Position numbers and translations under genes: made by a program
The notes under the pieces: generated by a model
What the model was told of the DNA's origin: nothing
What the model saw: the letters and a program-made list of their open reading frames with translations, nothing else
Database searches by the model: none
In this document: one piece after another, positions 16,964-59,331 of the stretch
Numbering within the stretch: position 1 is the stretch's first letter
Layout of the letters: every line of letters starts with the position of its first letter
DNA from: an uncultured Planctomycetota bacterium
GTDB taxonomy: Bacteria > Planctomycetota > Planctomycetia > Isosphaerales > Isosphaeraceae
NCBI GenBank assembly: GCA_963823665.1
Contig: CAWGMQ010000008.1
Span: 1,088,001-1,152,000, forward strand
Direction of reading: 5' to 3'
Length of the DNA stretch: 64,000 nt

Positions 16964-19825
16964 ATGGCGGTTGAGCGATCAGAAGCCTCGCTGAAGCACT
17001 TGCGAACCCTCTGGAACGAGGGCGCAATCAGCTCGCTTGGCGATCGAGAGCTGCTCGCGCGGTTCGTCGCGCATACGGGGGATGCGGCCGAGGCCGCGTT
17101 TGCGGCCCTGATGGAACGCCACGCGCCCATGGTTCTCCTCGTCTGCCGCCAAATGCTGGGCGACGAGCATGACGCCCAGGACGCCTGCCAGGCCACCTTC
17201 CTGGTTCTTGCGAAGAAGGCTCGCTCGATCAAGAAGCCGGAAGCGCTCGGTAGCTGGCTGCACGGCGTCGCCCTGCGGGTCTCCGCCAAGGCCAAAACGG
17301 CCGCCGCCCGGCGTCGATCTCACGAACGGCAAGGTGTTCACATGGTTGCACGATCCGAAAGCGATTGGCCGGGAGCCGATCCCTGCCCGGAGCTGCACGA
17401 GGAAATCGCCCGGCTCCCTGAGCGTTATCGATTGCCAGTGGTGCTCTGCTACCTCGAGGGCCTGACCCACGATCAGGCCGCGCGCAAGCTGGGCTGGCCG
17501 TTGGGGACCGTGGAGAGCCGTCTGGCCCGAGCCCGCGGCCGCCTGCGACGGCGACTTGAGCACCGAGGCGCGATGCCCGGTGTCGCACTGCTCGGAGCCC
17601 GCTCACTTGCCGATCTCGCCAAGACAACCGTTTCGTCGGGCTGGATCGAGGCTACGGCTCGATCCGCAACCCAGTTCGCAGCCGGTGAAACCGCGGCCGC
17701 CGTCGCCTCGGCCAACGTGGCATTCCTGACACGAGAGACCCTGAACATGATGACGCTCTCGCAGATCAAGCTCGCAATCGCCTGTTCTCTTGCCGCGGTC
17801 GCGGTCGCAACGGGCGTGGTGGCCGTCGTTCGCGCGGTACCGGCGGCGACATCGCAACCGCCTCTGATTGCGGCGATTCAGCCGGGCCCACCCGCCGCGG
17901 AGCGGGCGAAGCCTCCGGAGCCGCCAGTCGCACCGGTGACGATCAAGGTCCGCGGCCGCGTGCTTGATCCGGCGGGACGTCCACTCCAGGGCTCGCGATT
18001 GTGGCTCGCGTTCCAGGGCACTGACTGGACGTGGTCGAACCGGGTTCCGGAGGTCCGGGCCACCTCGGGTGCAGACGGGCGTTTCGAGTTCACCGTCTCG
18101 GACAACGATCCCGAAGTCAGCCGTGCCCTGCGCATGACGTCCGGCTGGCCCGATGGCTTCGGCGACATCCAGATCCTCGCCTCGGCAGACGGTTTCGGAC
18201 CGGCCTGGACCCCGCTGGCGGCCATCAAGACCGAGATCGAGCTGCGACTCGTTCCCGACGACATCCCGATCGAAGGCCGCCTGCTCACGCTCGAAGGCCA
18301 TCCGATCGTCGGCGCCACCGTGAAAACGCAGATGGTGGAGGATGCGGCTCGATCTAAGACCACCTTCGGAGCCCCGTCTGGCTTCTTCCAATCGGCGACG
18401 ACCGATGCCGAAGGCAGGTTTCGACTGACGGGGTTCGGCCGCGGGCGGCGGGTGATGCTGGGCTTTGCCGGCGGCGGGATCAAGCGCGAGGAAGTCCAAG
18501 CCGTGACGGGAACCTTCCCGGCGGATCATCCCACCCGATTTCGCGGGATCGCTCAAGTGGGGCCGAAGTTTGAGCACCTATGCAAGCCAGGCAAGTCTAT
18601 CGAAGGAGTCGTCCGAGATCTCGACACCGGGGCGGCACTCCCCGGAATCACGGTGAGAGCGGAATTTGGAGGCTATGCCTGGGCGACCACCGACCAAAAC
18701 GGCAGGTATCGGATCGAGGGATTGGACAGCTCACCGACGCGGCGAATGACGGCCTCGGCACGCGGGGGCGATCAGCCGTACCTGACCTCCGAGCGGACGG
18801 TGAACGACAAGGCCGGTTACGACACGATGGCAGTCGACTTCAGTCTGTTGAAGGGCGTCGTCGTCACCGGGCGCATGACTGACCGCGCAACCGGGAAGCC
18901 CGTGCAGGCCTGGGTGGGTTACGCAGCAATGCGAGACAATCCGCACTGGTCGAGAGCCCCAGGCTTTACTCAGGTCCCCGGGATCGGCAACGGCTACCGG
19001 CCTATCCACTACGTTCCGGCAATGGCAGACGGCAGCTACCGCCTCGTCACTCTTCCGGGGAAGGGTTTCCTCGTCGCGTTCATCCAGTATCAATCCGACC
19101 GCTTCCTCCCCGCCGGCGTCCCGAACAAAAGGAAACCGGGCGCACCGGCGGATGCCCTCGACGTCCACTATGACACGGTGCCGTTCGAGCTTTTCCCTTC
19201 CAATTTCCCCGCAGTCAAAGAGATCGATATCGCCCCCGGAACGGAAGCGATTACGCGCGATCTGACTTTCGACTCAGGCGTGACACGTATCGGCACCGTC
19301 GTCGATTCTGAGGGGCATCCACTCGAAGGCACGACCACCATGGCCGGCGAGACGCGTGAGCAGTTCTACCGACTCAATGCGATTGACGGCTCCAAATTCA
19401 CAGTCTACGGTCTGTTCCGCGATCCGAAGCTGTACCGCACGGTGATTTTTCGCAATGAGGCGCGCGGGCTCGGCACGACGCTGCGGGTCGACGGCAGCGA
19501 TGCCGGCCCGATCAACGTTCGCCTCGATCCATTGGCCAGCCTCACCGGCCGGTTGGTCGACGAGTCCGGAAAACCCCGCAAAGACGCTGAGATGCGACTG
19601 CTGCGGATCGTGGAGGAGCCATACGTTGGGGCCAACGGCGAGTTCTCACCCCCGCTGCGAGCGACGACCGACGGCGATGGCCGATTCCGCATCGATGGCA
19701 TCATTCCGGGCACCGCCTACTGGCTCCAGACATCGGAAGGCCGGTTCTTCAATCGGGATTTGTGGACGCCCAGACCCGCCGAGAAGAAAGACCTCGGCGA
19801 CATCACACCCAAACCGGTGAGCTGA
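16964..19825 (+). CDS. Membrane-anchored ECF sigma factor with carboxypeptidase-regulatory-like beta-sandwich repeats (953 aa)
   Basis: DAQDACQATFLVLA, SWLHGVA, LPERYR...YLEGLT...GTVESRL; TM segment; repeated GRV.D..G.P...TDxxGRF. Confidence 0.93.
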   Translation: MAVERSEASLKHLRTLWNEGAISSLGDRELLARFVAHTGDAAEAAFAALMERHAPMVLLVCRQMLGDEHDAQDACQATFLVLAKKARSIKKPEALGSWLHGVALRVSAKAKTAAARRRSHERQGVHMVARSESDWPGADPCPELHEEIARLPERYRLPVVLCYLEGLTHDQAARKLGWPLGTVESRLARARGRLRRRLEHRGAMPGVALLGARSLADLAKTTVSSGWIEATARSATQFAAGETAAAVASANVAFLTRETLNMMTLSQIKLAIACSLAAVAVATGVVAVVRAVPAATSQPPLIAAIQPGPPAAERAKPPEPPVAPVTIKVRGRVLDPAGRPLQGSRLWLAFQGTDWTWSNRVPEVRATSGADGRFEFTVSDNDPEVSRALRMTSGWPDGFGDIQILASADGFGPAWTPLAAIKTEIELRLVPDDIPIEGRLLTLEGHPIVGATVKTQMVEDAARSKTTFGAPSGFFQSATTDAEGRFRLTGFGRGRRVMLGFAGGGIKREEVQAVTGTFPADHPTRFRGIAQVGPKFEHLCKPGKSIEGVVRDLDTGAALPGITVRAEFGGYAWATTDQNGRYRIEGLDSSPTRRMTASARGGDQPYLTSERTVNDKAGYDTMAVDFSLLKGVVVTGRMTDRATGKPVQAWVGYAAMRDNPHWSRAPGFTQVPGIGNGYRPIHYVPAMADGSYRLVTLPGKGFLVAFIQYQSDRFLPAGVPNKRKPGAPADALDVHYDTVPFELFPSNFPAVKEIDIAPGTEAITRDLTFDSGVTRIGTVVDSEGHPLEGTTTMAGETREQFYRLNAIDGSKFTVYGLFRDPKLYRTVIFRNEARGLGTTLRVDGSDAGPINVRLDPLASLTGRLVDESGKPRKDAEMRLLRIVEEPYVGANGEFSPPLRATTDGDGRFRIDGIIPGTAYWLQTSEGRFFNRDLWTPRPAEKKDLGDITPKPVS

Positions 19826-23696: not shown

Positions 23697-25565
23697 TCAC
23701 CTCGACCCGCCCACACCGCGAGGCGGCAATCGCTTCTCGAGCTCCTGAACCTTCTTCTCGAGCTCGTTCAACCGCCGTAGAATCGCCGGCGCGTCGAGCT
23801 TCTCGTGGTCGGGCGTCTTCAGATCGATTTCCGCTTGCAGGCGCCGGAGTTTGATCCCTTTGAGGTCGGCCTCACTCAAACTCCCGGCCTTGTGAAGCTC
23901 CGTCGCCGCCTTTTCGAGTGCTTGAATCCGTTTGAGCGAGCTTTCCTTGATCGCGCCCAAAGGCCGCGCCGGATTTCCTGCCCGGATCTCGGCGTTCTCG
24001 AGCGCGTCACAGGCCTCGATCACATCGGCGAACGGCAGCTCGCCCTCGACGTGCTGCTTGCATTTAATTTCGAATCGTTCGAGCGCCAGCCGCACCAGTT
24101 CCTCTTTCTTGCCAGCCAGCTCGTCAGCCGCCGCAATCTTCGCCGGATCAGTTGGCAAACTCGGAATCGTCAGTTCCGACTGCCGCACGCGGATCGGCTG
24201 CTCCTCGGACGCCGCCAGATCCAATTCCGCTTCCATACGCCGCACTTTGATCGCCATCGAATCAGAGCGCTTCGCACTTCCCTCTTTCATACGGACGTCC
24301 ATGATTTGATCCAGTCGCTCGAACCGCTTGAGCGAGCGCTCCTTCACTTCTCGTCGCGCCGCCGGGTTATTCGCGGCCCTCAGCTCGACCCGATCCAGCT
24401 CAAGGCCGGCGTCGATCAACGTCTCGACAGATATCTCACCTCCTTCAAACGACTGCCGCACCAGCTCGTAACGCTGTCTGGCGATTTCAACCAATTCCTG
24501 CATCTGCCGATCGAGTGCGTCGTTCTTCAAGAATGCGCCACCGTTCGGACTCGGTCCTTTCTTCTCTTCGACCGAAATCTCCTTCGTCTGCGCCTGTTGA
24601 GCTTGCGACACGCGAACAATCGTATAGCCGCCGCCAACGGTTAAGGATGCCAGCGACAAAACCACCGTGGCCATCACCGTCAGCTTCTTGAGCGTCATCA
24701 TCTTGAGCACTCCCTCCGCAAGAGCCACTGAACTCGCCGGAACAACCGTCATGCCAGAGATTGATACATCCGCGCTCTGCGCCGCGAGTTTCACAACAAG
24801 CGTCGCCACACCCTCGGGAATCGCAGTCGCCGGACCGCCGGCGAGCGCCCCGGCCAAAAGCGAAGCGCTTGCCTCCTCGCCCGCCAGCCAAGCCCCCAAA
24901 AGCCCAACCACCGCCGGCGTTGCCAGGCCGCGCCGGCTAAGCCGCCCGCGAAGCTTGTCCCTTCCTCGCGAAAGCCGGCTCCGCACTGTTCCGACCGGCC
25001 AGCTCAACGACGCGGCTGCCTCGTCATGAGTCAAGCCTTCCATGTAGCACAGCACGATCGGTGCGCGATATTTCTCCGGCAAACGGCTGATTTCCTGGTG
25101 CACGGCCTCCGCGGTTTCCGCCCGTTCGATCGCGCAGGACGTGACCCCGCGCGCTCCGTTTGCTTCGAGAAGCTGGGCCGCTGCCGCTGCATCCGTGCGA
25201 CGCTCGCGCACGCGATGCCGGATCGCATTGGCTTTCGTGCGGTTTGCCACGCGCACAGCCACACCGTGGAGCCAGCTTCCCAGCGACTCGCGTTTCCGGA
25301 TCGCGCTCGCCCGCCGCGCAAGCACCAGGAAAACCGCTTGCCACGCGTCGTGGACATCACCCGGATCATCGAGGATCTGCCGGCACACCCGCTCGACCAT
25401 CGGCCCATGGCGCTTGACGAGCAGCTCGAACGCCAGCTCGCCAGCCTGAACATGCGCGGCCAGGAACCGCGCGAGCAGTTGCCCATCCGTGAGCGCGGAG
25501 CAGGTCCCCGCGCCCCAGAGCAGCTCCAAGGCCTCAACATATGGTCGCGCCGATGCACGCCTCAT
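23697..25565 (-). CDS. Membrane-anchored ECF sigma factor with duplicated all-helical (TolC/OEP-like) C-terminal extension
   Basis: Sigma2/sigma4 motifs, TM after MMTLKK, two repeats (ARQRYE..FEGGEIS / ALERFE..HVEGELP), terminal coiled coil. Confidence 0.9.
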   Translation of the reverse strand: MRRASARPYVEALELLWGAGTCSALTDGQLLARFLAAHVQAGELAFELLVKRHGPMVERVCRQILDDPGDVHDAWQAVFLVLARRASAIRKRESLGSWLHGVAVRVANRTKANAIRHRVRERRTDAAAAAQLLEANGARGVTSCAIERAETAEAVHQEISRLPEKYRAPIVLCYMEGLTHDEAAASLSWPVGTVRSRLSRGRDKLRGRLSRRGLATPAVVGLLGAWLAGEEASASLLAGALAGGPATAIPEGVATLVVKLAAQSADVSISGMTVVPASSVALAEGVLKMMTLKKLTVMATVVLSLASLTVGGGYTIVRVSQAQQAQTKEISVEEKKGPSPNGGAFLKNDALDRQMQELVEIARQRYELVRQSFEGGEISVETLIDAGLELDRVELRAANNPAARREVKERSLKRFERLDQIMDVRMKEGSAKRSDSMAIKVRRMEAELDLAASEEQPIRVRQSELTIPSLPTDPAKIAAADELAGKKEELVRLALERFEIKCKQHVEGELPFADVIEACDALENAEIRAGNPARPLGAIKESSLKRIQALEKAATELHKAGSLSEADLKGIKLRRLQAEIDLKTPDHEKLDAPAILRRLNELEKKVQELEKRLPPRGVGGSR

Positions 25566-42874: not shown

Positions 42875-43303
42875 ATGGCTGGACGGAAGGGCCTGGCGAT
42901 CACGGAGCGGCAGTTCGAGGTGCTTCGGGTGCTCTGGGGGCACGGGCCGCAGACGGTTCGCGGGTTGATGGTGCTTCTTCCCCGGGGAGACAGGCAGCCG
43001 TACACCACGGTGCTGGGGCTGTTGCAGGGGATGGAGAAGGCCGGGCTGGTCGATCATGAGAAAGACGGAATCACGCATCGCTATCGGCCTGTTGTCTCGC
43101 GTGAGGAAGGCACCGGCAACTTGCTCTCTGACTTCCTGGCGCGGTTCTTCCATGGATCGGCCGAGCAGTTGGTGCTTGGGCTGGTCGATGCGCAGGAACT
43201 GGCTCCTGATGACCTGCGGGCGATCGAGGCCAAGCTGGCGGATCAAGACTCGCGAGCAAATGGGACCAGGACTGCGCCTGCGAAAAAGAGGAAGGCGCGA
43301 TGA
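42875..43303 (+). CDS. BlaI/MecI/CopY family repressor
   Basis: EVLRVLW.HGP.TV, YTTVL.LL, RFFHGSAEQLV; ATGA overlap with the M56 gene. Confidence 0.93.
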   Translation: MAGRKGLAITERQFEVLRVLWGHGPQTVRGLMVLLPRGDRQPYTTVLGLLQGMEKAGLVDHEKDGITHRYRPVVSREEGTGNLLSDFLARFFHGSAEQLVLGLVDAQELAPDDLRAIEAKLADQDSRANGTRTAPAKKRKAR

Positions 43304-45951
43304 CACAATTCACTGACGACTGGGTCATTCCCTGGCTTGCGCTGCTTTGTGAATGGTCGATTCGCTGGGGCGTTCTGCTCGCGCTTCTCGCCGCGTGGTT
43401 CGCGGTGCATCCTCCGCGACGGGCCGCTGCACGCCATGTTCTCTGCTGGGCTGCTCTCGTGGCGGGGTTGCTGATTCCGGTTGCGCCGCGGTGGGGAGGA
43501 CTCCCGGTACCGAGGTGGAACATTGGAGCGCGGGAGGCAAGCGAGCCACCGATCCGAACTGTGAGCCTGCCGCAGATGCGGCAGGTTCAATCCGCTCGGC
43601 CCGCGATCGCGTCACAGGCATCTGATTTGTCGAACACTCCATTGCCGGTTGCTTCCGTTCATGCGACGTCAGTCTCGTTCAGTGGATTTCAGCTTGCGGC
43701 ACTGGCGATGGCTTCGGCGTGGGCATTCGGCGTCCTGATGTTGCTCATCCGTCTGGCCGGCGGCTGGCTGATGCTGGTGAGATTTAGCCGCGGGGCGGCC
43801 GAGATCGACGGGGAGTGTGACGCAATCTTCCTTGAGTGCACGGCAGCGATCGGGCTCTCTCGAGCCGTCCGGCTCGTCGCTCATCGTGCGATCGGCTCGC
43901 CGGTGGCATTTGGCTGCCTGGGTCCGCGAATCCTCGTACCGGCAGATTGGGCTAGCTGGCCTGAGGCACAGCGTCGCGCTTGTCTGCTCCATGAGCTGAC
44001 ACACCTCAAACGGCGGGATGACTGGTCCAAGCTGGCTCAGGAGCTGATTTCGGTTTTCTTCTTCTTCCATCCCCTGGTGCGCTGGCTGATCGCACGGCTC
44101 GACCGCGAACGCGAGTTGCTCTGCGACGAGGCGGTGGTTGCGCTGGGTACGGAGCCGGCGGGCTATGCTCGCATGCTGCTGGAAATGGCCAGACGGCCTG
44201 AACGAATCCTGGCGCTTCCCTCACGCGTTCCTTCCGCATTAATTCCCTTTGTAGGTCGCCGAACCGTCGCGATTCGCATCTCGCGACTGCTGGAGGATGA
44301 TATGTCGAATACGCTCTCTCGATCGTCGTTGTGTCGGTCGCTAATCCTGGGAGTTCTGGCGGCCATTGTTTCGCTCGCTGTGACGGGCGTTCGAATTCGC
44401 GCCGTGGAGCCGCAGGCGAGTGGGTCAATCGAAACGGGGGTTCTCACCCGCAAGATCGAGGGCCTGATCCTCGACCCCGATGGCAAACCGGCAGCCGACG
44501 CCACCGTGGTGGCGTGGATCGCCTATGCCGAGAAGAAGAGTCGCTCCGTGCTACGCAGCGATCAGAGCGGCAATTTCAGCTATTCGTTCCCCGATGGACC
44601 CGGCGTGATTCACTTCATTGCCTACAAGGAAGGTCTCGCACCCGGATTCCGGCAACAACCGATCGAAATGCTACACCAGGGCGATCGCCGTGACGGCAAA
44701 CTCGGTAGGATCAGCCGGTTCACAGCGATCGTCGTGGACAACGAGGGCAAGCCATTTCGTGATTCCAAGATCCGCGTCGAAGGGGTCGCGCATGTCAGTT
44801 CGAAGACGGACGGATCTCAGACCACGATCAGCTCGTCGTACGACTGGATCAGGCGCGAGATTCTCGCCGGAAGCCCGCTCGAGGGACTCCTTGAGACGAC
44901 AACCAACGCGGACGGCTCGTTCGTCTTCACGATGCTCGAGGAAGATTGCGGTCTCATGCTCGGCGCCGTCTCCGCTGACGGCCGCGGGTTTCGGATCAGG
45001 TCCAGGCGCCACTCGACGAATTCCGTCCACCGAGGAATTGAGCAAGAAGGATTCGTCATCGCGGAAGCCGGCGAAAAAGCTGAACTCGTCGCAATCCCTG
45101 AAGCTCGCGTCTCGGGCCGCGTCGTGACTTCACTCCCAGGCGTGCGCGTGGCGGGCCTGAAGGTGAGCTTCCAGTCCCCACACGTTTATCCCGGAATGAC
45201 CAATGTTTCGCCCGAGCACGTGTTGACCGACGCGGACGGACGGTTCAGCTTCACCGGTCTGAACGAAGGCTCGGTCAACATCTTCGTGGGGGGAAAGGGC
45301 GAAGAGGATTGGACCTATCGGGCAGCCAAGGACGTTCTTCTTACACCCGGTGAGACCTCACGCGTGACGATCGAGCTGATCCGAGGCGTCGTCGTCGAGG
45401 GAGCCGTCGTCGTCAAGGAGACCAATCAGCCGGCCCGAGGATTCACCGTCGGGGTCATCGGGCCGCTCCGTCCGAGCACGGGCGCGGCGACGACGAGGGT
45501 CAAGACCGACGGGCGCGGCCGCTACCGCGTGCGCCTGCCATCCGGCGAGACCGAGTTCTACGTCCCCGGTCCGGTGTTCGGAAAGATATCGCGCCTCACC
45601 ATTCCCATCCCCGAGGATCGCGCGACCTTCGAGATGCCCGTCATCTCCGTGGAGACCGACCCGACGATCCACGCAAAGGTGCTCGATGCCGATGGCCAGC
45701 CCTTCCCGGGTGCAACGGTTCTTGGCATCGACAAGAACGACGTGCTCGAGCCGTTTCTGGGCGCCGAGTACGTGACAGACGTTCGCGGCCGGTTCGTCCT
45801 GCCGAGTGAAGTGTACAAGCGAGCGGCAACCGGCAACCAAACCCGGCTCCGCATCCGCCTGCCCGACGGCGCCGAGCAAACCGCCATCATCTCCTTCGAA
45901 CCGGACAACTCGGTAGTTGTCCGGCTTGACCGAAGTCGCCAAGATCTCTAG
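43300..45951 (+). CDS. BlaR1-like M56 peptidase with carboxypeptidase-regulatory-like repeats
   Basis: LLHELTHLKRRD, FFFHPLV, ERELLCDE; beta-sandwich repeats C-terminally. Confidence 0.92.
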   Translation: MTQFTDDWVIPWLALLCEWSIRWGVLLALLAAWFAVHPPRRAAARHVLCWAALVAGLLIPVAPRWGGLPVPRWNIGAREASEPPIRTVSLPQMRQVQSARPAIASQASDLSNTPLPVASVHATSVSFSGFQLAALAMASAWAFGVLMLLIRLAGGWLMLVRFSRGAAEIDGECDAIFLECTAAIGLSRAVRLVAHRAIGSPVAFGCLGPRILVPADWASWPEAQRRACLLHELTHLKRRDDWSKLAQELISVFFFFHPLVRWLIARLDRERELLCDEAVVALGTEPAGYARMLLEMARRPERILALPSRVPSALIPFVGRRTVAIRISRLLEDDMSNTLSRSSLCRSLILGVLAAIVSLAVTGVRIRAVEPQASGSIETGVLTRKIEGLILDPDGKPAADATVVAWIAYAEKKSRSVLRSDQSGNFSYSFPDGPGVIHFIAYKEGLAPGFRQQPIEMLHQGDRRDGKLGRISRFTAIVVDNEGKPFRDSKIRVEGVAHVSSKTDGSQTTISSSYDWIRREILAGSPLEGLLETTTNADGSFVFTMLEEDCGLMLGAVSADGRGFRIRSRRHSTNSVHRGIEQEGFVIAEAGEKAELVAIPEARVSGRVVTSLPGVRVAGLKVSFQSPHVYPGMTNVSPEHVLTDADGRFSFTGLNEGSVNIFVGGKGEEDWTYRAAKDVLLTPGETSRVTIELIRGVVVEGAVVVKETNQPARGFTVGVIGPLRPSTGAATTRVKTDGRGRYRVRLPSGETEFYVPGPVFGKISRLTIPIPEDRATFEMPVISVETDPTIHAKVLDADGQPFPGATVLGIDKNDVLEPFLGAEYVTDVRGRFVLPSEVYKRAATGNQTRLRIRLPDGAEQTAIISFEPDNSVVVRLDRSRQDL

Positions 45952-46819: not shown

Positions 46820-47931
46820 ATGCGCGAGCTCACTGCCCAGAACGCCGCCGAGTATCTCCGGGATTCCGGGCGAGTTCCTGGTGGCTTATCGATCAAGGTC
46901 CGTGAGCTGACTGGCGGCGTGTCCAATATCGTGCTCGCGCGGATATCTCCGGGCGCCCGCCGATCGTGATCAAACAATGCCGCGAGCGGCTGCGCGTGGC
47001 CATGGAATGGCACGCACGGCTGGAACGCATCTGGACCGAGCAGGCGGCGATGGAGCGGCTGGGTGCCATTCTGCCCGCGGGCACTGTTCCGCTCGTCGTA
47101 TTCGAAGACCGACCGAATTACCTTTTCGCCATGACATGCGCCCCAGACGATGCGGTCACCTGGAAGTCGCAGTTGATGGGCGGAACGCTTGATCCGGAAA
47201 TCGCCGTTCGATTGGGGATCATCCTGGCCATGATCCACGACAAGGCTCCGGGGCAACCGTCACTCACGGCGCAACTTTCGCGGAGCGAAAGGCGACAATG
47301 GACAATCCACGACACGGCTGCGGCGGGACCGTCACTCACGGGCATCCTCGCCGACACAAGCCTCTTCGACGAGCTTCGGGTCGACCCTTACTATCGGACC
47401 ATCGCGCGGGCGCATCGCCGATTTGAAACCACAGATTGATGCACTGATCGCCGCGATGGATCGGCCGGTTAAGGAGCGGACACTGGTGCTCGGGCGACTT
47501 CAGCCCCAAGAACATCCTGGTGCATCAACACGGGCTCATTTTGCTTGATTTCGAATGTGCCCATGCGGGCGACGCGGCATTCGACCTGGGGTTCTTTCTC
47601 ACGCATCTTCTGCTCAAGCGAATTCGTGCCGAGGCGATCGACCACCGACTGGCGCCGGAGATATACGGGCTCGCGACCACGTTCCTGGACACGTACCTGG
47701 ATCGACGCGTCATGGACGCAACGGCGCGCGCCGATTTGACGCATCGCAGCCATCGTGCATACGGCGGCTTGCTGCCTGGCCCGCGTGGATGGCAAGAGCC
47801 CAGTGGAATATCTCGACGTAGCGGGCCCAGGCCACGGCGCGTGCATTCGCCCGGGAGTCTCTTCGCACCGAGCCACGGACATGGGATGCTTTACTCGAGC
47901 AGCTCGACGAGGCAATCAAGAGGACGAACGC
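46820..47931 (+). CDS. APH / methylthioribose-kinase-like phosphotransferase (several frameshifts; 3' end approximate)
   Basis: LTGGVSN, VIKQ...LRV...W, LRVDPYY, LGDFSPKNIL, LLDFE.AH.GD.AFDLGF, LARVDGKSPVEYL in successive frames. Confidence 0.85.
47233..47341 (+). repeat. Intragenic REP-like hairpin flanked by a 37-bp imperfect direct repeat
   Basis: 47233-47269 vs 47305-47341 match at 32/37 by my count; between them CTTTCGC-GGA-GCGAAAG; period 72 nt. Confidence 0.75.
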
Positions 47932-49280
<1,349 letters not shown>

Positions 49281-49318: not shown

Positions 49319-49457
49319 GTGGGTCAGGCTTTCAGGCTGACAGAGTGCGGAAGTCGGTTTTCCAAACGGTCAGCTTTGCGGCGCAATGAGTGAGAGAATC
49401 GTCAGGCTAAAGCCTGACCTACTTTGGCCAAAATCGTCAGGCTGAAGCCTGACCTAC
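49319..49457. repeat. Three GTAG-family REP palindromes (GTAGGTCAGGCT.NAGCCTGAC)
   Basis: Copies at 49319-49341 (opposite orientation, degenerate), 49401-49422 and 49436-49457. Confidence 0.85.
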
Positions 49458-49470
49458 TCGGGAGCTCGTC

Positions 49471-51294
49471 ATGGACGCGAGTGCATCCGCTGGTTACCTC
49501 CGCGACATGCACACCCTGTTTGACGCGGGCACGGTCAGCGGATTAACCGACCGGCAGCTCTTGCAGCGGTTCACGGGCGAGCGAGGCGCATCGGGTGACG
49601 CGGCATTTGAAGCGCTCGTGCTGCGGCACGGGCCGATGGTCATGCGGGTTTGCCGCAACGCGCTCGGGCAGGAACAAGCCGATCTCCACGACGCATTTCA
49701 GGCGACGTTTCTCGTGCTCGTTCGAAAGTGCAATTCGATTCGCAGGCTGGACTCGGTGGGAAGCTGGCTTTTCGGGGTGGCGACGCGGGTGGCTCGCCGC
49801 GCTCGAGTGGAAGCGGCTCGGCGACGCTCGGCCGAACTCCGGGGTGGGCTGCGAATCGCGGTGACCGCCGATCGTGGGGGTGATTCTACCGACATCCACG
49901 ACCTCGGGCCGCTGTTACAGGCTGAGGTCGAGCGGCTGCCGGAGCGGCTTCGGGCCGTGGTGATCTTGTGTTACTGGGAGGGGCTCACGCACGAGCAAGC
50001 GGCGGCGCGGCTCGGTTGCCCGCTGGGCACGGTGCGCAGCCGGGTGGCGCGGGCTCGTGGGTTGCTCCAACGCCGGCTTTCGCGGCGAGGACTCGAACCG
50101 GTGGCCGGAGTGATGCTCGCGGTCTTTGACTCGCCGGCTTTCTTGAAGGCGACTGCACTCGAGATTCCCGGCTCACTCGTCAACTCGACTGTCCAGATCG
50201 GCACGCAGGCCGCGACGGGCGCCTCGCTTGCACAGCTTACGTCACCTTTCATTGCGTCTCTGGTCCGAAACATTATCGGGAGCATGTTCATGACGAACGT
50301 GAAGACGATCGCTGCGTGTCTGTTGTTGATTGGTGCGGGTGCTTATGGTCTCACCCTTGCCGCACCCCAGGCCCAGCGCACCTCGCGGCCGAGACCGACA
50401 TCAGATGGCCCGCGGCGCCCCGCCGCCGGGAAATCCAAAGCTCAGCCCGCGCTGGAAGCTCTCGGCGACTATGTGGTTGAGCCTCCCGACACCTTGCTGA
50501 TCGAAGTCCTGGAAGCGCTGTCGGGACGGCCCATCTCGGGCGAGCGCCTGGTGCGGCCGGACGGCAAGATCTCGCTTGGATTCTACGGGGAGATCTATGT
50601 TGCAGGCCTGACGCTGGCGGAAATCAAAGAGAAGGTCATTCTTCACCTCAAACAATTCATCGGCCCACAAAAACTGGGGTTGGTCGCTCCACCATCGGAG
50701 GTCCGTGAGGGCGAGTTCAATTCCAGGATGGAAGCGGGGAAGCCCATCGCCCCGCGGGATTCGAACCTAGTGTTCGTTGAATTGGCGAAGTCCAACAGCA
50801 AGTTTTATTACCTTCAAGGGGCGTTTGTCATACCCGGCCGCGTGCCGGTGACGGGACGGGAGCGGATTCTCGACGCCGTCAACAAGGCGGGAGGTCTCGC
50901 TCCCGAGGCAGACAGCAATCAGGTCTTCCTTTACCGCGTGGGCTCGAACGAAGGGCGCCTCAAGACACTGAAAATCGACATCGATCAGATCACCTTGGGC
51001 GATGACCTGTCGACGAACTACCAGCTCATCCCCGGTGACCGGTTGGTCGTCCGACGGCGAGCAGGCAGCCTTCCGGAAACGGAAGAGAAGCTGGCGGAGC
51101 CGTCGGAGGAGGTCGCACCGCAGCCGTCTCGTCCTGACGGCGATTCCGACCGGCCGCAAGCGACGGACGACTCAGCGAGCAAAGCCGCGCCGGGCGGTGT
51201 CATCGAAACCCTGCACCGATTTGACAAGCGATTGGGCGAAGTCGAGCGCAAGCTCGGTTTGATTCTCGAGGCACTTGGATCCACGCGGCGTTAA
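49471..51294 (+). CDS. ECF sigma factor - TM - Poly_export/SLBB (Wza-like) fusion, copy 1
   Basis: Sigma2/sigma4 motifs; [35 protein letters not shown]...AGGL, NYQL.PGDRLVV. Confidence 0.92.
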   Translation: MDASASAGYLRDMHTLFDAGTVSGLTDRQLLQRFTGERGASGDAAFEALVLRHGPMVMRVCRNALGQEQADLHDAFQATFLVLVRKCNSIRRLDSVGSWLFGVATRVARRARVEAARRRSAELRGGLRIAVTADRGGDSTDIHDLGPLLQAEVERLPERLRAVVILCYWEGLTHEQAAARLGCPLGTVRSRVARARGLLQRRLSRRGLEPVAGVMLAVFDSPAFLKATALEIPGSLVNSTVQIGTQAATGASLAQLTSPFIASLVRNIIGSMFMTNVKTIAACLLLIGAGAYGLTLAAPQAQRTSRPRPTSDGPRRPAAGKSKAQPALEALGDYVVEPPDTLLIEVLEALSGRPISGERLVRPDGKISLGFYGEIYVAGLTLAEIKEKVILHLKQFIGPQKLGLVAPPSEVREGEFNSRMEAGKPIAPRDSNLVFVELAKSNSKFYYLQGAFVIPGRVPVTGRERILDAVNKAGGLAPEADSNQVFLYRVGSNEGRLKTLKIDIDQITLGDDLSTNYQLIPGDRLVVRRRAGSLPETEEKLAEPSEEVAPQPSRPDGDSDRPQATDDSASKAAPGGVIETLHRFDKRLGEVERKLGLILEALGSTRR

Positions 51295-51325
51295 CCACGG
51301 GCGAAGCGCGGAGAAGGAGCGAGCG

Positions 51326-53272
51326 ATGCCGGGAACTGCACCAACTGACTACCTCCGCGACATGCACACGCTCTTCGACGCGGGCACAGTCAGCGGACTA
51401 ACCGACCGCCAGCTCTTGCAGCGGTTCACGGGCGAGCGAGGCCCGTCGGCTGAGGCGGCCTTTGAAGCGCTCGTGCTCCGGCATGGGCCGATGGTCATGC
51501 GGGTTTGCCGCAACGCATTGGGACAGGAGCAGGCGGAAATCCAGGATGCGTTCCAGGCGACGTTTCTCGTGCTCGTCCGAAAGTGCAAGTCGATTCGCCG
51601 GCTGGACTCGGTGGGGAGCTGGCTCTTCGGGGTGGCGACGCGGGTGGCTCGCCGCGCTCGGGTGGAAGCGGCCCGGCGGCGCTCGGCCGAACTTCAGGGC
51701 GGGCTGCGAATCGCGGCGACCGCTGATCGTGGGAGTGATTGCACCGACATCCAGGATCTCGGGCCGCTGTTACAGGCCGAGGTCGAGCGGCTGCCGGAAC
51801 GCCTTCGAGCCGTGGTGATTTTGTGCTACTGGGAGGGCCTCACGCACGAGCAAGCGGCGGCGCGGCTGGGCTGCCCACTGGGTACGGTGCGCAGCCGGGT
51901 GGCGCGTGCTCGCGGTCTGCTTCATCGCCGGCTCTCGCGGCAGGGACTCGAGCCGGTGGCCGGCGTGATGCTCGCGGCGATTGACTCGCCGGCGTTCTTG
52001 AAGGCGGGAGCTTTGGAGATTCCCGGCTCACTCGTCAGCTCGACTGTCCTGATCGCGAAGCAGGCGGCGGCTGGGGCCTCGCTCGCACAGCTCACGTCAC
52101 CTTCCATTGCGTCTCTAGTCCAAAAAGTCATTGGGAGCATGTTCATGACGAAAGTGAAGTCGATCGTTGCGTGTTTCTTGTTGATCGGTGCGGGTGCTTA
52201 TGGGCTCACGCTGGCGGCGCCCCAGGCCCAGCAGCGCACCCGGAGGGCGGCACCGGCGTCCGACGCCTCGCGGCGGCCGGCAGCCGTGAAATCGAAGGCT
52301 CAGCCCCCGCTTCGCGTGATGAGCGAGTACGTTGTCGAGCCACCAGACCTCCTGTTGGTTGAGGTGCTGGAAGCGCTGCCGGGTCGGCCCATTTCGGGCG
52401 AGCGCCTGGTGCGGCCGGACGGCAAGATCTCACTCGGGTTTTACGGCGATGTGTACGTCGCTGGTCTGAGCGTACCGCAAGTCAAGGAGAAGATCATTCT
52501 GCATCTCAGAAAATACCTGCCGGATTCGCAACTGGGCCTGGTTGTCGAGGATGAGGCAGAAGAGGAGGCGCCTGCGGTGGCGGCGCCATCCGAGCGAACG
52601 AACCCTTTTGAGCAGAGCCCTCCGCCACAGTCGAAATCCGAAAAAAGGAAATCCACGGATCCGACTCCGCCCGTCCCGTCCAGCGAGCGCAAGACCCGCA
52701 TCGAACCGAAGGATAGCGACCGCGTCTTCGTCGATGTCACGGCCTACAACAGCAAGGTTTACTATACTCAGGGGGAGGTATTCACGACCGGACGCCTTCC
52801 CATCACGGGACGAGAGAGAGTACTCGACGCGATCGATTTTGCCGGCGGCTTGACGCCGGATGCCGACCACGAGCAAGTCTTCCTCTACAGACAGCCTGCC
52901 GACGGAGGTCCGGTACACACCTTGAAGATCGACATCGACGAGATCATGCTCGGGGATGACGTTTCGACCAATTATCAGCTCGATCCCGGAGACCGGCTGG
53001 TCGTTCGGAGACGTGAGAATCCCGTTCGTGAACAGCAAGGATCCGCGCCGCGACCATCGACGACCACTTCGCGGCCGATCGGCGAACAGCTCCACTTCAA
53101 CCGCGAGACAGATACCTTGGACAAACCGGCGGGGCCAGAGCCGAGACGACTGGATAGCCGTGGAGAGAACCCTGCGTTACTTCGGCTCGAGAGACGAATG
53201 ACGGATCTCGAGCAGAAGCTCGATCGGAAGCTGGACCTGATCCTGGAGGCGATTGGGAAACCGGCGCGTTAG
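51326..53272 (+). CDS. ECF sigma factor - TM - Poly_export/SLBB fusion, copy 2
   Basis: AAGGAG SD before MPGT; same architecture as copy 1. Confidence 0.92.
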
Positions 53273-53347
53273 GTTGTCTTTCGCGGGTCACTGCGGAAGT
53301 TGGGTTGCTTGAGGGTCAGCTTTGCGACGCGGCAGAATGAGAAAATC

Positions 53348-53369
53348 GTCAGGCTAAAGCCTGACCTAC
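53348..53369. repeat. GTAG-family REP palindrome
   Basis: GTCAGGCTAAAGCCTGACCTAC, identical to 49401-49422. Confidence 0.85.
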
Positions 53370-53381
53370 TGGGAACTCCTG

Positions 53382-55205
53382 ATGAACGCCAGCGCATCCG
53401 GCGGCTACCTCCGCGACATGCACACGCTTTTCGATGGGGGCACGGTTAGCGGATTATCGGACCGGCAGCTCTTGCAGCGGTTCACGGGCGAGCAAGGCGC
53501 ATCGGCTGAGGCGGCCTTTGAAGCGCTCGTGCTGCGGCACGGGCCGATGGTGATGCGGGTTTGCCGCAATGCACTGGGGCAGGAGCAGGCGGAAATCCAT
53601 GATGCGTTCCAGGCGACTTTTCTCGTGCTCGTTCGAAAGTGCAAGTCGATTCGGCGGCTAGACTCGGTGGGGAGCTGGCTCTTCGGGGTCGCGACGCGTG
53701 TGGCTCGCCGCGCTCGGGTGGAAGCGGCTCGGCGGCGCTCGGCCGAACTCCGGGGTGGGCTGCGCATCGCGGCAACTGCTGAACATAGGAGTGATCATCC
53801 CTCCGACATCCAGGATCTCGGGCCGCTGTTACAGGCTGAGGTCGAGCGGCTGCCGGACCGGCTTCGGGCCGTCGTGATACTGTGCTACTGGGAGGGACTC
53901 ACGCACGAGCAAGCGGCGGCGCGGCTGGGCTGCCCGCTGGGGACGGTGCGCAGCCGGGTGGCGCGGGCTCGGGGCGTGCTCCATCGCCGGCTTTCGCGGC
54001 GGGGACTCGAGCCGGTGGCCGGTGTGATGCTTGCGGCGTTTGAGTCGCCGGCCTTTTTGAAGGCGGGTGCGCTGGAGATTCCCGCTGCGCTCGTCAACTC
54101 GACCGTCCAGATCGCCGAGCAGGCGGCCGGCGGGTCGCTCGCTCAACTCGCCTCTCCGTCGATCATCGCCCTCGTGCGGAAAGTCATCGGGAGCATGTTC
54201 ATGGCAAAATTGAGAACGGTTGCTTTTTCCATGTTGCTGATCGGGGCAGGGGCATATGGGCTCACGCTGGCCGTGGCCCAGATCGAGGGCATGCGCAGGA
54301 GCCGGCGCGATCCCGCATTCATGTTTACGTCCGCGAACTCGAAAGCTCAGCCGCCGTGGAAGGTGATCGATGAATACGTGGTCGATCCGCCTGACCTCAT
54401 ACTCGTCGAGCTGCTCGAAGGCCTTCCCGGCCGCCCAATTTCGGGCGAGCGGCTGGTGCGACCCGACGGCAAGATCTCTCTGGGGTGGTACGGCGATGTC
54501 TACGTTGCCGGTCTCACCGTGTTGCAAATCAAGGAAAAGATCGTCCTTCACCTTCGCAAGTTCCTGCACGACGAACAACTGGGCCTGATCAAGGCGGACG
54601 ATGAGACCGGAGAGTTGATGACAGATGCCAACGGTGAGCCCATCCTCCTCGATCCCAAGGAATCCGACCGCGTGTTTGTGGATGTGACAGCCTATAACAG
54701 CAAGAACTACTACGTGCAGGGAGAATTCGCGACGCTGGGAAAACTGCCGATCACGGGACAGGAGCGAGTGCTCGACGCCATCAGTTATTCGAACGGCCTG
54801 ACCTCAAGCGCTGACCACGACCAAGTCTTCCTGTACCGACAGCCTGCCGATGGCGGGCCGGCGCAAACCTTGAAGATCGATGTTGACCAGATCATGCTCG
54901 GTGACGACCTTTCCACCAACTATCAGCTTCTACCCGGCGACAGGCTGGTGGCGCGGACTCGCGGGGGCGACACGCGTGAACCTGAACACCCGGCGCCGCG
55001 AAAATCGCCCCTCGAATCGAAGGCCGCGCCTGACTCTGACCCGATACGGCGTTCAGACACTTCAGGAAAACCAGCAACACCGGACGCCGGTAGACCGCCA
55101 AGAGGTTCAGAGAGCCCTCCGCTCCTGCGTCTCGAGAAGCGCGTCGCGGACATGGAGCGAAAGCTAGACCAGATTCTCGAGTCGCTGCGTGCCCAGGCTC
55201 ATTGA
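53382..55205 (+). CDS. ECF sigma factor - TM - Poly_export/SLBB fusion, copy 3
   Basis: Same architecture as copies 1 and 2. Confidence 0.92.
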
Positions 55206-55250
55206 CCCAGAACGTGTGCAGCAGACGGAACTGAATCGTTTGACGGGAAT

Positions 55251-56219
55251 ATGCCGATGGCCAAGCTCCGGACGATTGCAGCCTGTTTCGTGGTTGTGGC
55301 CGCGTATTCGTACGGCGTGCGCTCCGCGTCGCCCCAAGACGAGGGCGCGAAAGCCGTATCAAAACCAACGGACGAAGCCACCGAGCGGACGAAAAGAGAC
55401 CCGCCTCCGCCATTCGCACTGCGAGATGACTATGTCGTCGAGCCGCCTGATCTGATTTTCGTGTCGCTCGAGGGAGGGCTTCCCGGAAGGCCCCTCGCCG
55501 GCGAACGCCTCGTGTGCCCCAATGGCAAGATCGCGCTGGCATGGTACGGCTACGTGGATGCCGCCGGGCTTACCGTCGTCGAGATCAAGGAGAAGATCAT
55601 CGCTCGACTCCAGAAGTTCCTACGGGACGAGCAACTCGGACTGGTCGAACTCGACGCGAGTGGCGAGCCCATCGTCGATGCCACAACCGGAAGGCCAAAA
55701 CGTATCGCTCCCAGAGACTCCAAAAAGGTCCGGGTTGAGATCACGCGATGCAACAGTAAGGTCTTCTACGTCCTGGGCGAAGTGCAGTCACCTGGGCGAT
55801 TCGCTCTGACCGGCTCAGAGAGGATACTCGACGCGATTGCCGACGCCGACGGGCCAACTCATGCCGCGAATCTCGATCGCGTCCTGCTTTATCGTGCGAA
55901 TTCTGAAGGCAAGCCCGAGTGCACCACGATCGACGTGAATCAGCTCAAACGTGGCAAGTTTCCGGCAACCAACCGTCCACTCAAGGCCGGCGACCGGTTG
56001 GTCGTCTCCCGCCGTTCGTCAGAAGCGGTGCCGATCCAGCGGGACAAATCTCGTGCTCGCCCCCAACCCGCTGTTGCCGCTGCGTCGCAAAACAAGGATG
56101 GCGAATACCAACGCGCGGGCACGGAAGACGCGTCGTTACAGCGCCTTGAGCAGCGAATGAAAGCGCTCGACCACAAACTCGACCTTGTCCTCGAGGCGAT
56201 TCGAAAGCGGGTTCGATAG
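55251..56219 (+). CDS. Stand-alone Poly_export/SLBB protein with signal peptide; sigma-less paralog of the three fusions
   Basis: MPMAKLRTIAACF aligns with the internal [29 protein letters not shown], same terminal coiled coil. Confidence 0.9.
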   Translation: MPMAKLRTIAACFVVVAAYSYGVRSASPQDEGAKAVSKPTDEATERTKRDPPPPFALRDDYVVEPPDLIFVSLEGGLPGRPLAGERLVCPNGKIALAWYGYVDAAGLTVVEIKEKIIARLQKFLRDEQLGLVELDASGEPIVDATTGRPKRIAPRDSKKVRVEITRCNSKVFYVLGEVQSPGRFALTGSERILDAIADADGPTHAANLDRVLLYRANSEGKPECTTIDVNQLKRGKFPATNRPLKAGDRLVVSRRSSEAVPIQRDKSRARPQPAVAAASQNKDGEYQRAGTEDASLQRLEQRMKALDHKLDLVLEAIRKRVR

Positions 56220-57502: not shown

Positions 57503-58126
57503 ATGAGCATTGCGTCCGAGAAGCCGCAGCTTTCGGGATATGGACAGCCCACCTGGGATGTCGCCAGGCTCTTCCCCGCCCAGGGGTGCTGGACCGAGGA
57601 AGATTACCTCGAGCTCAAACCGAATCGCTGGGTGGAGTTCTCGCACGGGTTCGTTGAATTCCTGGCGACTCCGACGCTCTCACACCAGCTTGCGGCGCTC
57701 TATCTTTATCGCACCCTCGAGACGTTTGTCTCGACTCGTGAGCTGGGCACTGCACTCGCCGGGCCTTATCGGGTGCGCCTGTGGGAAGGCAAGTACCGTG
57801 AGCCCGACGTGCTGTTCGTGGCCGGCAAGCACGCATCACGCCTGACCGAGAATTACTGCAAAGGGGCCGACCTCGTGATGGAGGTCGTGAGCGACGGCGA
57901 GGAGAGCCACCGGCTCGACCGTGAGACGAAGCGCGATGAGTACGCCAAGGCCCGCATTCCGGAATACTGGATCGTTGACCCCGAGCAGGCCAGGATCACC
58001 GTGCTGATCCTCGACGGCCGGTCATATCGAGAGCTCGGCGAATACTCGCGCGGCGAGACAGCCCAATCCAGGTTGATTCCCGGGTTTTGCGTCGACGTGA
58101 CCTCGGCGATCAACGCCAAGCGGTGA
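57503..58126 (+). CDS. Uma2 family endonuclease-like protein
   Basis: WTEEDYL, REPDV, ADLVMEVVS, K..EYA.ARIPEYWIVDP. Confidence 0.92.
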   Translation: MSIASEKPQLSGYGQPTWDVARLFPAQGCWTEEDYLELKPNRWVEFSHGFVEFLATPTLSHQLAALYLYRTLETFVSTRELGTALAGPYRVRLWEGKYREPDVLFVAGKHASRLTENYCKGADLVMEVVSDGEESHRLDRETKRDEYAKARIPEYWIVDPEQARITVLILDGRSYRELGEYSRGETAQSRLIPGFCVDVTSAINAKR

Positions 58127-58143
58127 GCCGTGAGCGCGGGGTT

Positions 58144-58361
58144 CTCGGGGATGACGCCCCGAGCCATACGGTGCCGCCCCCTACGGGGGCTCTGATTCTG
58201 GCGCGGGCATCCCGACGTCTCGGGGTTCACACCCCGAGCTTTATGATGCCGCCCCCTGCGGGGGCTCTGATTTTGGCGCGGGCATTTCGACGTCTCGGGG
58301 TTCACACCCCGAGCTTTATGATGCCGCCCCCTACGGGGGCTTTGATCCTCGCGCGGGCATC
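58144..58361. repeat. Three tandem 75-bp double-hairpin REP-like units between convergent genes
   Basis: Units start at 58144, 58219 and 58294; each has CTCGGGG-N6-CCCCGAG and GCCCCC-N3-GGGGGC. Confidence 0.9.
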
Positions 58362-59331
58362 TCACCTGGGTGGATCAGCGGGCGGCTCTTGCTCGCGTCT
58401 GGCTCTGCCGACGGTCGCGGGCTTGGGGCGGGGGGTTCCGGGTGGGGCCATCGCCAGGCTCAAGCGGTTTGAGAGCTGGTGAGCCTGCGCGAAGTCTGGC
58501 GCGAGTCGCATTGCCTCCCGGGCCGCGGTGAGTGCATCTGCCGTTTTGTGGTGGGCCTCGAACGCGAGCGCCAGATGGTAATAAATATCCGCGCGGCCGG
58601 GCAGCGCGGATCGCGTGCTGAAGATCGGTGACTGCCGAATCGGTGTGCCCGAGCGCCAGTTGCGCGCGGCCCCGCAGGAACCGCGCCTCACCGTCGTCAG
58701 CAGCCATCTCCAGCACGCGGTCCAATCGTGAGAGCGCCTGCTCGGGCTGGTTGCGCGAGAGCTGAATGGCGGCGATGCAGCGGCTGGCCTGGGCATGGTT
58801 GGGCTCGCACTCGAGCGCCCTGAAGTATTCGGCCAGGGCCGGGTCGATCTGGCCCATGATCTGGAGCACGCTGCCGAGCGAGAAGTGCGCCTGAGTGCGA
58901 TGAGGGTCGATCTCGATCGCGGTCTCGAACCGTTTGCGGGCTGACTCTGCGTCGCCCTCGAGCGTCTCGACCTGGCCCAGCCCGATGACGGCATCCACAT
59001 AATCGGGATCGATCTTGAGGGCACGACTGAAGCAATCCTTCGCTTCAGCCAGACGGCCGTCGAGGAGGTAGACCGCACCGAGGCGCTGTTGAGCAACCGC
59101 CGAGGCCGGCGTGCGGGCGACTTGCTGCTCGAGCGCGGCCTCGGCCGCGGCGACGTCTCCATGATCGATCGCCGTCTGAGCGTGCTCGATCACCTGCTGC
59201 GCCTGCGCGGCCTCTTCCGGAGTCGGCGTGGGTCTGTCAGACCATCGGCGCAGCCCGACCCAGTTGCACCCGGCCTGAGCCGCGAGCAGCGAGAGCAAAA
59301 CCGCCCATTCGGCGAAAAAACCGCGCCGCAT
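58362..59331 (-). CDS. TPR-repeat lipoprotein (frameshift near 58610)
   Basis: Lipobox-like AQAGC after a hydrophobic stretch; multiple TPR repeats (AL..DP.Y.DA..GLG). The C-terminus lies in ORF 58362-59162. Confidence 0.85.

Follow-up and report, generated by a model that had tools for sequence, protein, structure and literature searches.

The window analyzed here, a stretch of 64,000 nucleotides (contig CAWGMQ010000008.1, assembly GCA_963823665.1), comes from the genome of an uncultured planctomycete of the Isosphaeraceae (G000; 16.46 Mb, 12 contigs) and contains a tandem array of four genes built from a sigma factor and a piece of a polysaccharide export channel (Table 1). Genes 1 to 3 each fuse an extracytoplasmic function (ECF) sigma factor, through a linker and a hydrophobic segment, to the D1 and D2 domains of a Wza-type outer membrane polysaccharide export (OPX) protein and a terminal coil; gene 4 encodes the exported module without the sigma part. 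Pfam matches to Sigma70_r2 and Sigma70_r4_2 were found in genes 1 to 3. Poly_export was matched in genes 1 to 4 with 43.4, 48.7, 36.8, and 34.3 bits (Pfam cut-off 28), and SLBB or SLBB_2 exceeded its cut-off in all four. The 10 best Foldseek matches of an AlphaFold model of the gene 3 D1-D2 module (predicted local distance difference test score 89.6) are Wza entries and WzaB. The original prediction, made from the letters of the DNA alone, had described three such fusions and a sigma-less fourth gene, and these domain and fold matches bear it out, as does the 91 to 93% mutual identity of the sigma regions that it had called near-identical. It was also right that the four proteins have neither a terminal lipobox nor a D4-like outer membrane helix: the 60 to 90 residues after D2 include a coil of the form ER-R-L-x-E-x-E-R-K-L-D-x-I-L in place of D4. 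For gene 2 we take the start to be the ATG behind AAGGAG at 51326, where the open reading frame lister instead puts it at TTG 51275.

The transmembrane helix of the original prediction survives as one hydrophobic segment of a different kind. Hydropathy analysis gives a single strong window (aa 280-298), which scores 1.9 to 2.1 against 1.2 to 1.4 for the weaker windows of the extension, and the segment has the N-region and H-region of a signal peptide, preceded by its own ribosome-binding site and methionine. A misassembly behind the fusion or the triplication, by which the prediction would have fallen, is unlikely, because the copies differ throughout, because a genome of the same genus (G019) has the same four genes in the same order and between the same flanks, and because pieces of genes 1 to 3 recur with 0 to 2 differences in short, low-depth contigs from two soil studies (gene 4 is uncovered, and none spans the array).

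Table 1. Features of the array and of related genes. Positions are those of the window unless a locus is named.
Feature	Position	Strand	Product or detail
Gene 1: ECF57-type sigma (aa ~10-205), linker, signal-anchor (aa 274-300), Poly_export D1 (from aa 334), SLBB D2 (to ~530), terminal coil	49471..51294	+	607 aa
Gene 2: architecture as gene 1, with a Pro/Ser-rich insert of ~30 aa between D1 and D2	51326..53272	+	648 aa
Gene 3: architecture as gene 1	53382..55205	+	607 aa; D1 identical to own OPX at 66/72
Gene 4: sigma-less; signal peptide, D1, D2, coil	55251..56219	+	322 aa
Gene 1 internal Shine-Dalgarno sequence and predicted start	50279..50292	+	GGAG 50279-82; in-frame ATG 50290 (aa 274)
Gene 2 internal Shine-Dalgarno sequence and predicted start	52134..52147	+	GGAG 52134-37; in-frame ATG 52145
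Gene 3 internal Shine-Dalgarno sequence and predicted start	54190..54203	+	GGAG 54190-93; in-frame ATG 54201
Poly_export D1 of gene 3, portion changing in parallel with own OPX (G000:C4, L009:9820-10764)	54375..54590	+
Short palindromic REP-like element, two copies ahead of gene 1, with duplicated upstream stretch	49401..49457	.	Copies at 49401 and 49436; third copy at 53348, ahead of gene 3
Sister genes with efflux-adaptor cargo	L165, L166, L229, L230, L232 (G000); L015, L018, L024, L025, L083, L087

D1 follows the OPX protein of its own genome

The main OPX protein of G000 (L009) is encoded on contig C4 and is a lipoprotein with D1, one SLBB domain, and a D4-like helix; the genome has two more OPX-like genes and one gene for D1 alone. 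A single Wzc exceeds the TIGR01007 cut-off, and its locus has a glycosyltransferase-4 family gene, an exosortase, and a glycosyltransferase. Wzc matches in 31 other genomes number one each in 30 and two partial ones in the remaining genome. Each genome has a main lipoprotein OPX and a single Wzc, and the two loci are not linked. No recurrent exopolysaccharide (EPS) neighbors were found at 30 OPX loci.

The D1 domains of the fusions and of the sigma-less copies resemble the OPX protein of their own genome. After exclusion of the frameshifted G019 copy, the partial G037 copy, and the G009 and G025 copies, whose OPX genes were not fetched, the own OPX was the best or tied best D1 match among 30 OPXs for 25 of 41 copies, with a mean rank fraction of 0.108 against 0.5. 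For gene 4 it is the best of the 30. Gene 3 D1 has 90% amino acid identity to the own OPX and 44% identity at four-fold sites. Within two old paralog clades, delimited on distal D2, D1 is closer to the own OPX than to every same-type copy from another genus in 7/11 and 9/11 cases (16/22 in total), versus 0/10 and 0/8 (0/18) for distal D2. The distal D2 tree places 28 OPXs in one clade and the fusions in old paralog clades, whereas the D1 tree interleaves them; in these quick trees OPX monophyly is rejected on D1 (approximately unbiased test, p-AU 0.011) and not rejected on distal D2 (0.76). With genera collapsed, an exact permutation test on D1 gives 2/40320 (8 genera). The signal persists within genera, where informative sites divide between own and congener 145:51 in D1 and 65:54 in D2. 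By segment, tracking is 0.61 to 0.92 throughout D1 and 0.45 to 0.57 in D2, save one segment at 0.69.

The likeness lies in the protein and hardly in silent sites. At informative D1 sites of the two old clades, 74 to 76% of amino acids follow the own OPX, versus 53 to 54% of silent sites, and the longest DNA runs identical to the own OPX average 16 nt, versus 14.6 nt for other OPXs. The gene 3 orthologs of G000 and G019 illustrate this: at silent sites they agree with each other at 46/61 and with their own OPXs at 36/65 and 33/65, whereas the proteins match their own OPX at 66/72 and the ortholog at 62/72. Recent gene conversion is therefore not favored as the cause of the D1 likeness, as silent sites barely track and identical runs are short. 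Tracking of the protein with hardly any tracking of silent sites, fading in D2, points instead to selection to keep a fit with the native export machine, in which D1 would be held to the native ring and its Wzc face. Parallel changes in G000 and G019 affect the alignment columns of Wza Y155 and Q160. Wza residues T154/Y155 and D99-E103, and the matching WzaB loop, contact Wzc (PMC12881504, PMC13469938, PMC12819527), at a Wza-Wzc junction whose structure was resolved only in 2026; from motif position, we infer that the beta1-beta2 loop of the modules corresponds to D99-E103. The sequence evidence that the cargo engages the native polysaccharide export machine is unusually good.

Two observations concern the OPX genes themselves. 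An OPX-like gene on contig C3 (L010:9147-10583) encodes a nonlipoprotein signal peptide and a D4-like helix, and its D1 has the own main OPX as best match. Most OPX loci, including L009, have a conserved element with TTGAGC, TGCCGAT, and TGTCAAG ~170 to 230 nt before the start; it resembles a sigma-28-type -10 box and, on the opposite strand, a sigma-70 -35 box.

The fusions are a variant of the ECF57 group

The fusions fit the ECF57 type of sigma factor in their cysteine pair and their membrane extension. C61 in sigma2 and C167 in sigma4 are invariant in 34/34 fusions, both cysteine motifs occur in 112/144 ECF57-like genes, and sigma2 and sigma4 alone precede a long C-terminal extension. The ECF57 group (formerly ECF01-Gob; PMC7826278, PMC8999054) consists of planctomycete sigma2-sigma4 proteins that have a cysteine in each domain and a membrane segment in their long C-terminal extension; a genome holds many paralogs, and release from the membrane has been proposed. 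The cargo here is Wza D1-D2 and a coil, not WD40, and there is one strong hydrophobic segment against a published figure of ~2, which is a group average; the published descriptions consulted mention neither an internal start nor co-evolution with a native machine. The array is a real, conserved variant of this known group. The original prediction missed the context in which its genes stand, as 3 of at least 141 ECF57-like sigma genes in G000 (150 of 327 candidates were scored).

With the C-terminal part as query, 558 proteins were found among 8000 scored, and Poly_export and a sigma-70 domain occur together in 90 of the 120 matches listed, two of them from this window. The OPX lineage of the modules is present in 86/86 Isosphaeraceae genomes searched. 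At E 1e-25, a threshold that confines the survey to close members of the lineage, it is found in 35/36 genomes of the family and 0/114 genomes from other families of the class. Sigma and D1 lie in one frame at 29 of 31 candidate loci from other genomes and are split by a frameshift at 2, but these loci were chosen for long frames and do not give a prevalence. The named full-length relatives are from Isosphaeraceae or other Planctomycetota, for example L127 of Aquisphaera insulae (residues 6-607), and the ESM Atlas returned solely generic planctomycete sigma clusters, under 0.9. No description of a sigma/Poly_export fusion or of an ECF57 internal start was found in the searchable literature; Supplementary File 18 of PMC7671368 does have columns headed Poly_export and SLBB, which implies that at least one planctomycete extension with such a match had already been tabulated.

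L060:5994-8483 (G085) is a fusion with two tandem D1-D2 modules, and L012:5109-5831 (G000:C10), which adjoins ECF genes, encodes a small membrane protein with a lone terminal Poly_export D1.

A probable internal start is conserved ahead of the hydrophobic segment

The hydrophobic segment opens with Met-x-Lys, and the GGAG ahead of it is kept through different amino acid pairs, in two frames, and with the rare codons AGG and GGA. We compared 144 ECF57-like genes with a hydrophobic segment, from 152 sigma hits, comprising 37 OPX fusions and 107 genes with other cargo. GGAG lies 4 to 12 nt before an in-frame methionine in 33/37 OPX fusions, versus 6.1+-2.2 in synonymous shuffles (maximum 13), and in 72/107 genes with other cargo, versus 17.5 (maximum 27), for an overall 105/144. 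The window was first set at 4 to 10 nt, which gave 26/37 and 22/107 versus 3.8 and about 6, and was widened after a second peak appeared at 11 nt. At a control methionine in sigma2 the count is 2/130, with 4.3 expected. Gene 4 begins exactly at the equivalent methionine and is the equivalent of the product predicted from the internal starts of the fusions, and a sigma-less D1-D2-coil gene follows the fusion at 7/31 other loci. It is likely from the conserved GGAG that each fusion gene also makes a secreted sigma-less protein resembling gene 4. The suggestion that gene 4 is a decoy or a co-subunit is therefore plausible but probably too narrow, since every fusion gene has an internal start that would give a like product.

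A single comparable case was noted in a gene of another kind. The BlaR1/M56 gene of the window (43300-45951), beside a BlaI-type repressor, has GGAGG 5 nt before an in-frame ATG at 44302, and this internal methionine opens a signal-peptide-like segment ahead of the periplasmic domains.

Homogenized sigma parts and a sister cargo

The sigma parts of genes 1 to 3 share 74 to 79% identical codons with one another versus 57 to 64% with the first G019 copy, which argues that they were homogenized after the split of G000 and G019; they probably read the same promoters. The D1-D2 modules of these genes are near silent saturation, such that three near-identical sigma parts are carried on three older, differing modules. 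The locus is itself old and syntenic across genera, and OPX cargo is found on several separate sigma lineages (FastTree of sigma and linker; deep support is weak).

A truncated resistance-nodulation-division (RND) efflux adaptor, consisting of a lipoyl domain and a hairpin, is the cargo of sister ECF57 genes, which often lie in the same tandem arrays. This cargo has no Pfam match at 1e-4; a profile of the lipoyl/hairpin fragment matches MacA (E 1.6e-4) and MexJ. G000 also encodes a stand-alone adaptor 50% identical to the fragment, an adaptor fused in full to a sigma factor, and a truncated copy that lacks sigma, a set that mirrors that of the OPX genes.

Neighboring genes and candidate promoter

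The array is flanked by an enolase-like gene, Uma2 proteins, an FAA hydrolase, and a TPR protein. The original prediction had noted that no wzc, wzy, flippase, or glycosyltransferase gene flanks the array, and this holds for the 36 of ~53 called window genes that were scanned; a GDP-mannose dehydratase-like gene lies 36 kb upstream. GGAAGT-N14-GGTCA, which precedes genes 1 and 3, was considered as an autoregulated promoter and rejected: it has 6 genomic matches versus 7 for a reversed control and occurs before just one other fusion gene, and is taken to be duplicated upstream DNA.

Elsewhere in the window, kinase-like and enolase-like genes upstream of the array (46966-49280) carry disrupting frameshifts that their intact relatives lack, probably through long-read errors or decay. 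A distinct tandem repeat lies at 57853-58365, after the second Uma2 gene. Two further ECF57-like genes (16964-19822 and 23700-25529) were found, one with carboxypeptidase-regulatory-like repeats.

Discussion

The reading that we prefer, with about even confidence, is that ECF57-type sigma factors with a Wza D1-D2 module are inner membrane sensors that dock at the OPX-Wzc junction. The full-length protein would sit in the inner membrane with the sigma factor inside and D1 docked at the junction, bound to the native OPX ring, to the tip of the Wzc arm, or to both. Segment values do not separate Wzc docking, with tracking at the apex only, from ring co-assembly, with tracking of the whole of D1; we slightly favor co-assembly because all of D1 tracks and not the Wzc-contacting loops alone. 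The original prediction that the module co-assembles with or mimics OPX rings gains indirect support from D1 following the own OPX at the protein level. Soluble D1-D2-coil copies, from internal initiation and from gene 4, would act as competitors or join the assembly by way of the terminal coil, and in this manner would set the threshold. An altered docking state (an unengaged Wzc, or an unassembled or stalled OPX) would expose the anchor to site-1/site-2 proteolysis and free the sigma factor; M50 site-2 proteases have 10 matches in the genome. The three copies would act on one regulon, each with a probe tuned differently.

The proteins of the array resemble known OPX proteins in part. They share the D1-D2 fold of Wza, a class 1 OPX (PMC12881504, PMC13469938), and the Wzc-contacting D1 loops are present and track the own OPX, but D3, the lipobox, and the D4 outer membrane helix are absent, the last two being found in the separate OPX L009. 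Tethered from the inner membrane side or soluble, they could not form an outer membrane pore. Class 3 OPX proteins, such as WzaB and WzaX of Myxococcus xanthus (PMC12819527; bioRxiv 2022.02.11.480155), likewise consist of Poly_export and SLBB only, and WzaB needs membrane tethering to form oligomers and binds the co-polymerase via the alpha1-beta5 loop (PMC12819527). In class 3 proteins, little or nothing follows the last SLBB, and a neighboring gene encodes a porin. The array, in contrast, has a coil after D2, a sigma fusion, and no adjacent beta-barrel porin or EPS cluster, no porin gene was among the recurrent neighbors of 32 fusion loci, and a lipoprotein OPX with a D4-like helix is encoded separately in the genome.

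There are also precedents, by analogy, for the proposed release. IutY of Pseudomonas putida, an ECF243 hybrid, is a sigma factor fused to its own anchor and periplasmic part for which regulated proteolysis is the activation model (PMC8999054), whereas cleavage is only proposed here. A TonB-dependent siderophore receptor passes the signal to IutY via a FecR-type domain, where the array would use a periplasmic copy of an export-channel subunit; no FecR domain was matched in the scan of window genes, and no TonB-dependent transducer was among the recurrent fusion neighbors. The RsiP and RsiV anti-sigma factors may serve as a precedent for a regulated signal-peptidase-type site 1 beside a membrane anchor, but they are separate anti-sigma proteins of Firmicutes.

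Several observations weigh against a docked sensor. Gene 1 (rank 0.74) and three fusions of genus g38 (0.60-0.86), the four copies that rank above 0.5, do not track the own OPX. The genomes are related, so that the counts overstate independence; distal D2 carries a weak genus signal (228/5040 permutations, 7 genera), silent-site tracking is slightly above half, and tracking of the whole of D1 could also remain from old block-wise gene conversion. By arithmetic, the ~35-residue linker reaches a folded Wzc easily and an extended one (about 110 Å, PMC13469938) barely. An AxA signal-peptidase motif is present in 31/37 fusions versus 30.0 in shuffles, making the (-3,-1) test nondiscriminating, and if cutting at this site were constitutive there would be no tethered sensor. 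Finally, the 32 fusion loci showed no recurrent EPS neighbor, nor did a search upstream of the fusions give a promoter motif common to them; with a candidate promoter that is not enriched, the polysaccharide regulon of the original prediction found no support.

A different working product, which we consider somewhat unlikely, is the soluble D1-D2-coil protein of the internal starts and of gene 4, which would either serve the export channel as an accessory subunit or act as its brake while the sigma factor is freed constitutively or answers another signal, such that the gene would couple a modulator to a sigma factor without sensing export. This would account for D1 tracking equally well; the internal ribosome-binding site is strongly conserved, the segment resembles a cleavable signal peptide, and the sigma-less genes that follow fusions at other loci also track the own OPX. 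On the other hand, the in-frame fusion is intact at all but the two frameshift-split loci, on several sigma lineages, and the internal start, as a general ECF57 trait shared with most other cargo, does not single out the OPX module. It is improbable, to our mind, that the module is a self-assembling glycan receptor in which the SLBB domain or the ring lumen binds periplasmic repeat units or polymer without contact to the native OPX or Wzc: SLBB domains are predicted polymer binders (bioRxiv 2022.02.11.480155), Wza D1-D2 alone octamerizes (PMC12819527), and distal D2 diverges by paralog as different ligands would predict, but the tracking of the own OPX by D1, by genome and within genera, is left unexplained. 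Least probable of all is fortuitous capture, which has been proposed for the varied C-terminal extensions of planctomycete ECFs (PMC7671368). In this case a duplicated sigma cassette would have become joined to a copy of OPX, and D1, as the most similar part, would be kept alike by occasional conversion, with little regulatory meaning in the extension; the abundance of ECF57-like genes in G000, the demonstrable homogenization of sigma parts by conversion, and tracking across the whole of D1 suit it, but silent sites barely track, identical runs are short, the locus is old and syntenic across genera, and D1 is ~83% identical to the own OPX with silent sites near saturation.

Starting from the docked sensor, we tentatively extend the proposal to the family, as a possibility that we hold with less confidence. 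Isosphaeraceae may survey trans-envelope export machines with integrated mimics, made from an ECF57 cassette (sigma, linker, internal ribosome-binding site, and signal peptide) and a pore-less fragment of a machine subunit, either the OPX D1-D2 ring or, in the sister genes, the efflux-adaptor hairpin. The fragment would co-evolve with the native subunit, join the machine, and convert its assembly state into sigma release, and the soluble copy from the same gene would buffer the signal. Plant NLR receptors with integrated decoys hold a copy of the host protein that they watch; the analogy is one of logic only, as the proteins are unrelated.

Whether the captured extensions of planctomycete ECFs have a regulatory function was left open by PMC7671368. 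One such extension now bears signs of selection, at the level of single residues, for likeness to a named native partner, and function can thereby be put to a direct test. The internal start would mean that annotations miss a second, secreted product in a family with more than 100 members per genome. If the sensor reading is true, the fusions would be a one-component link from the Wza-Wzc junction to transcription.

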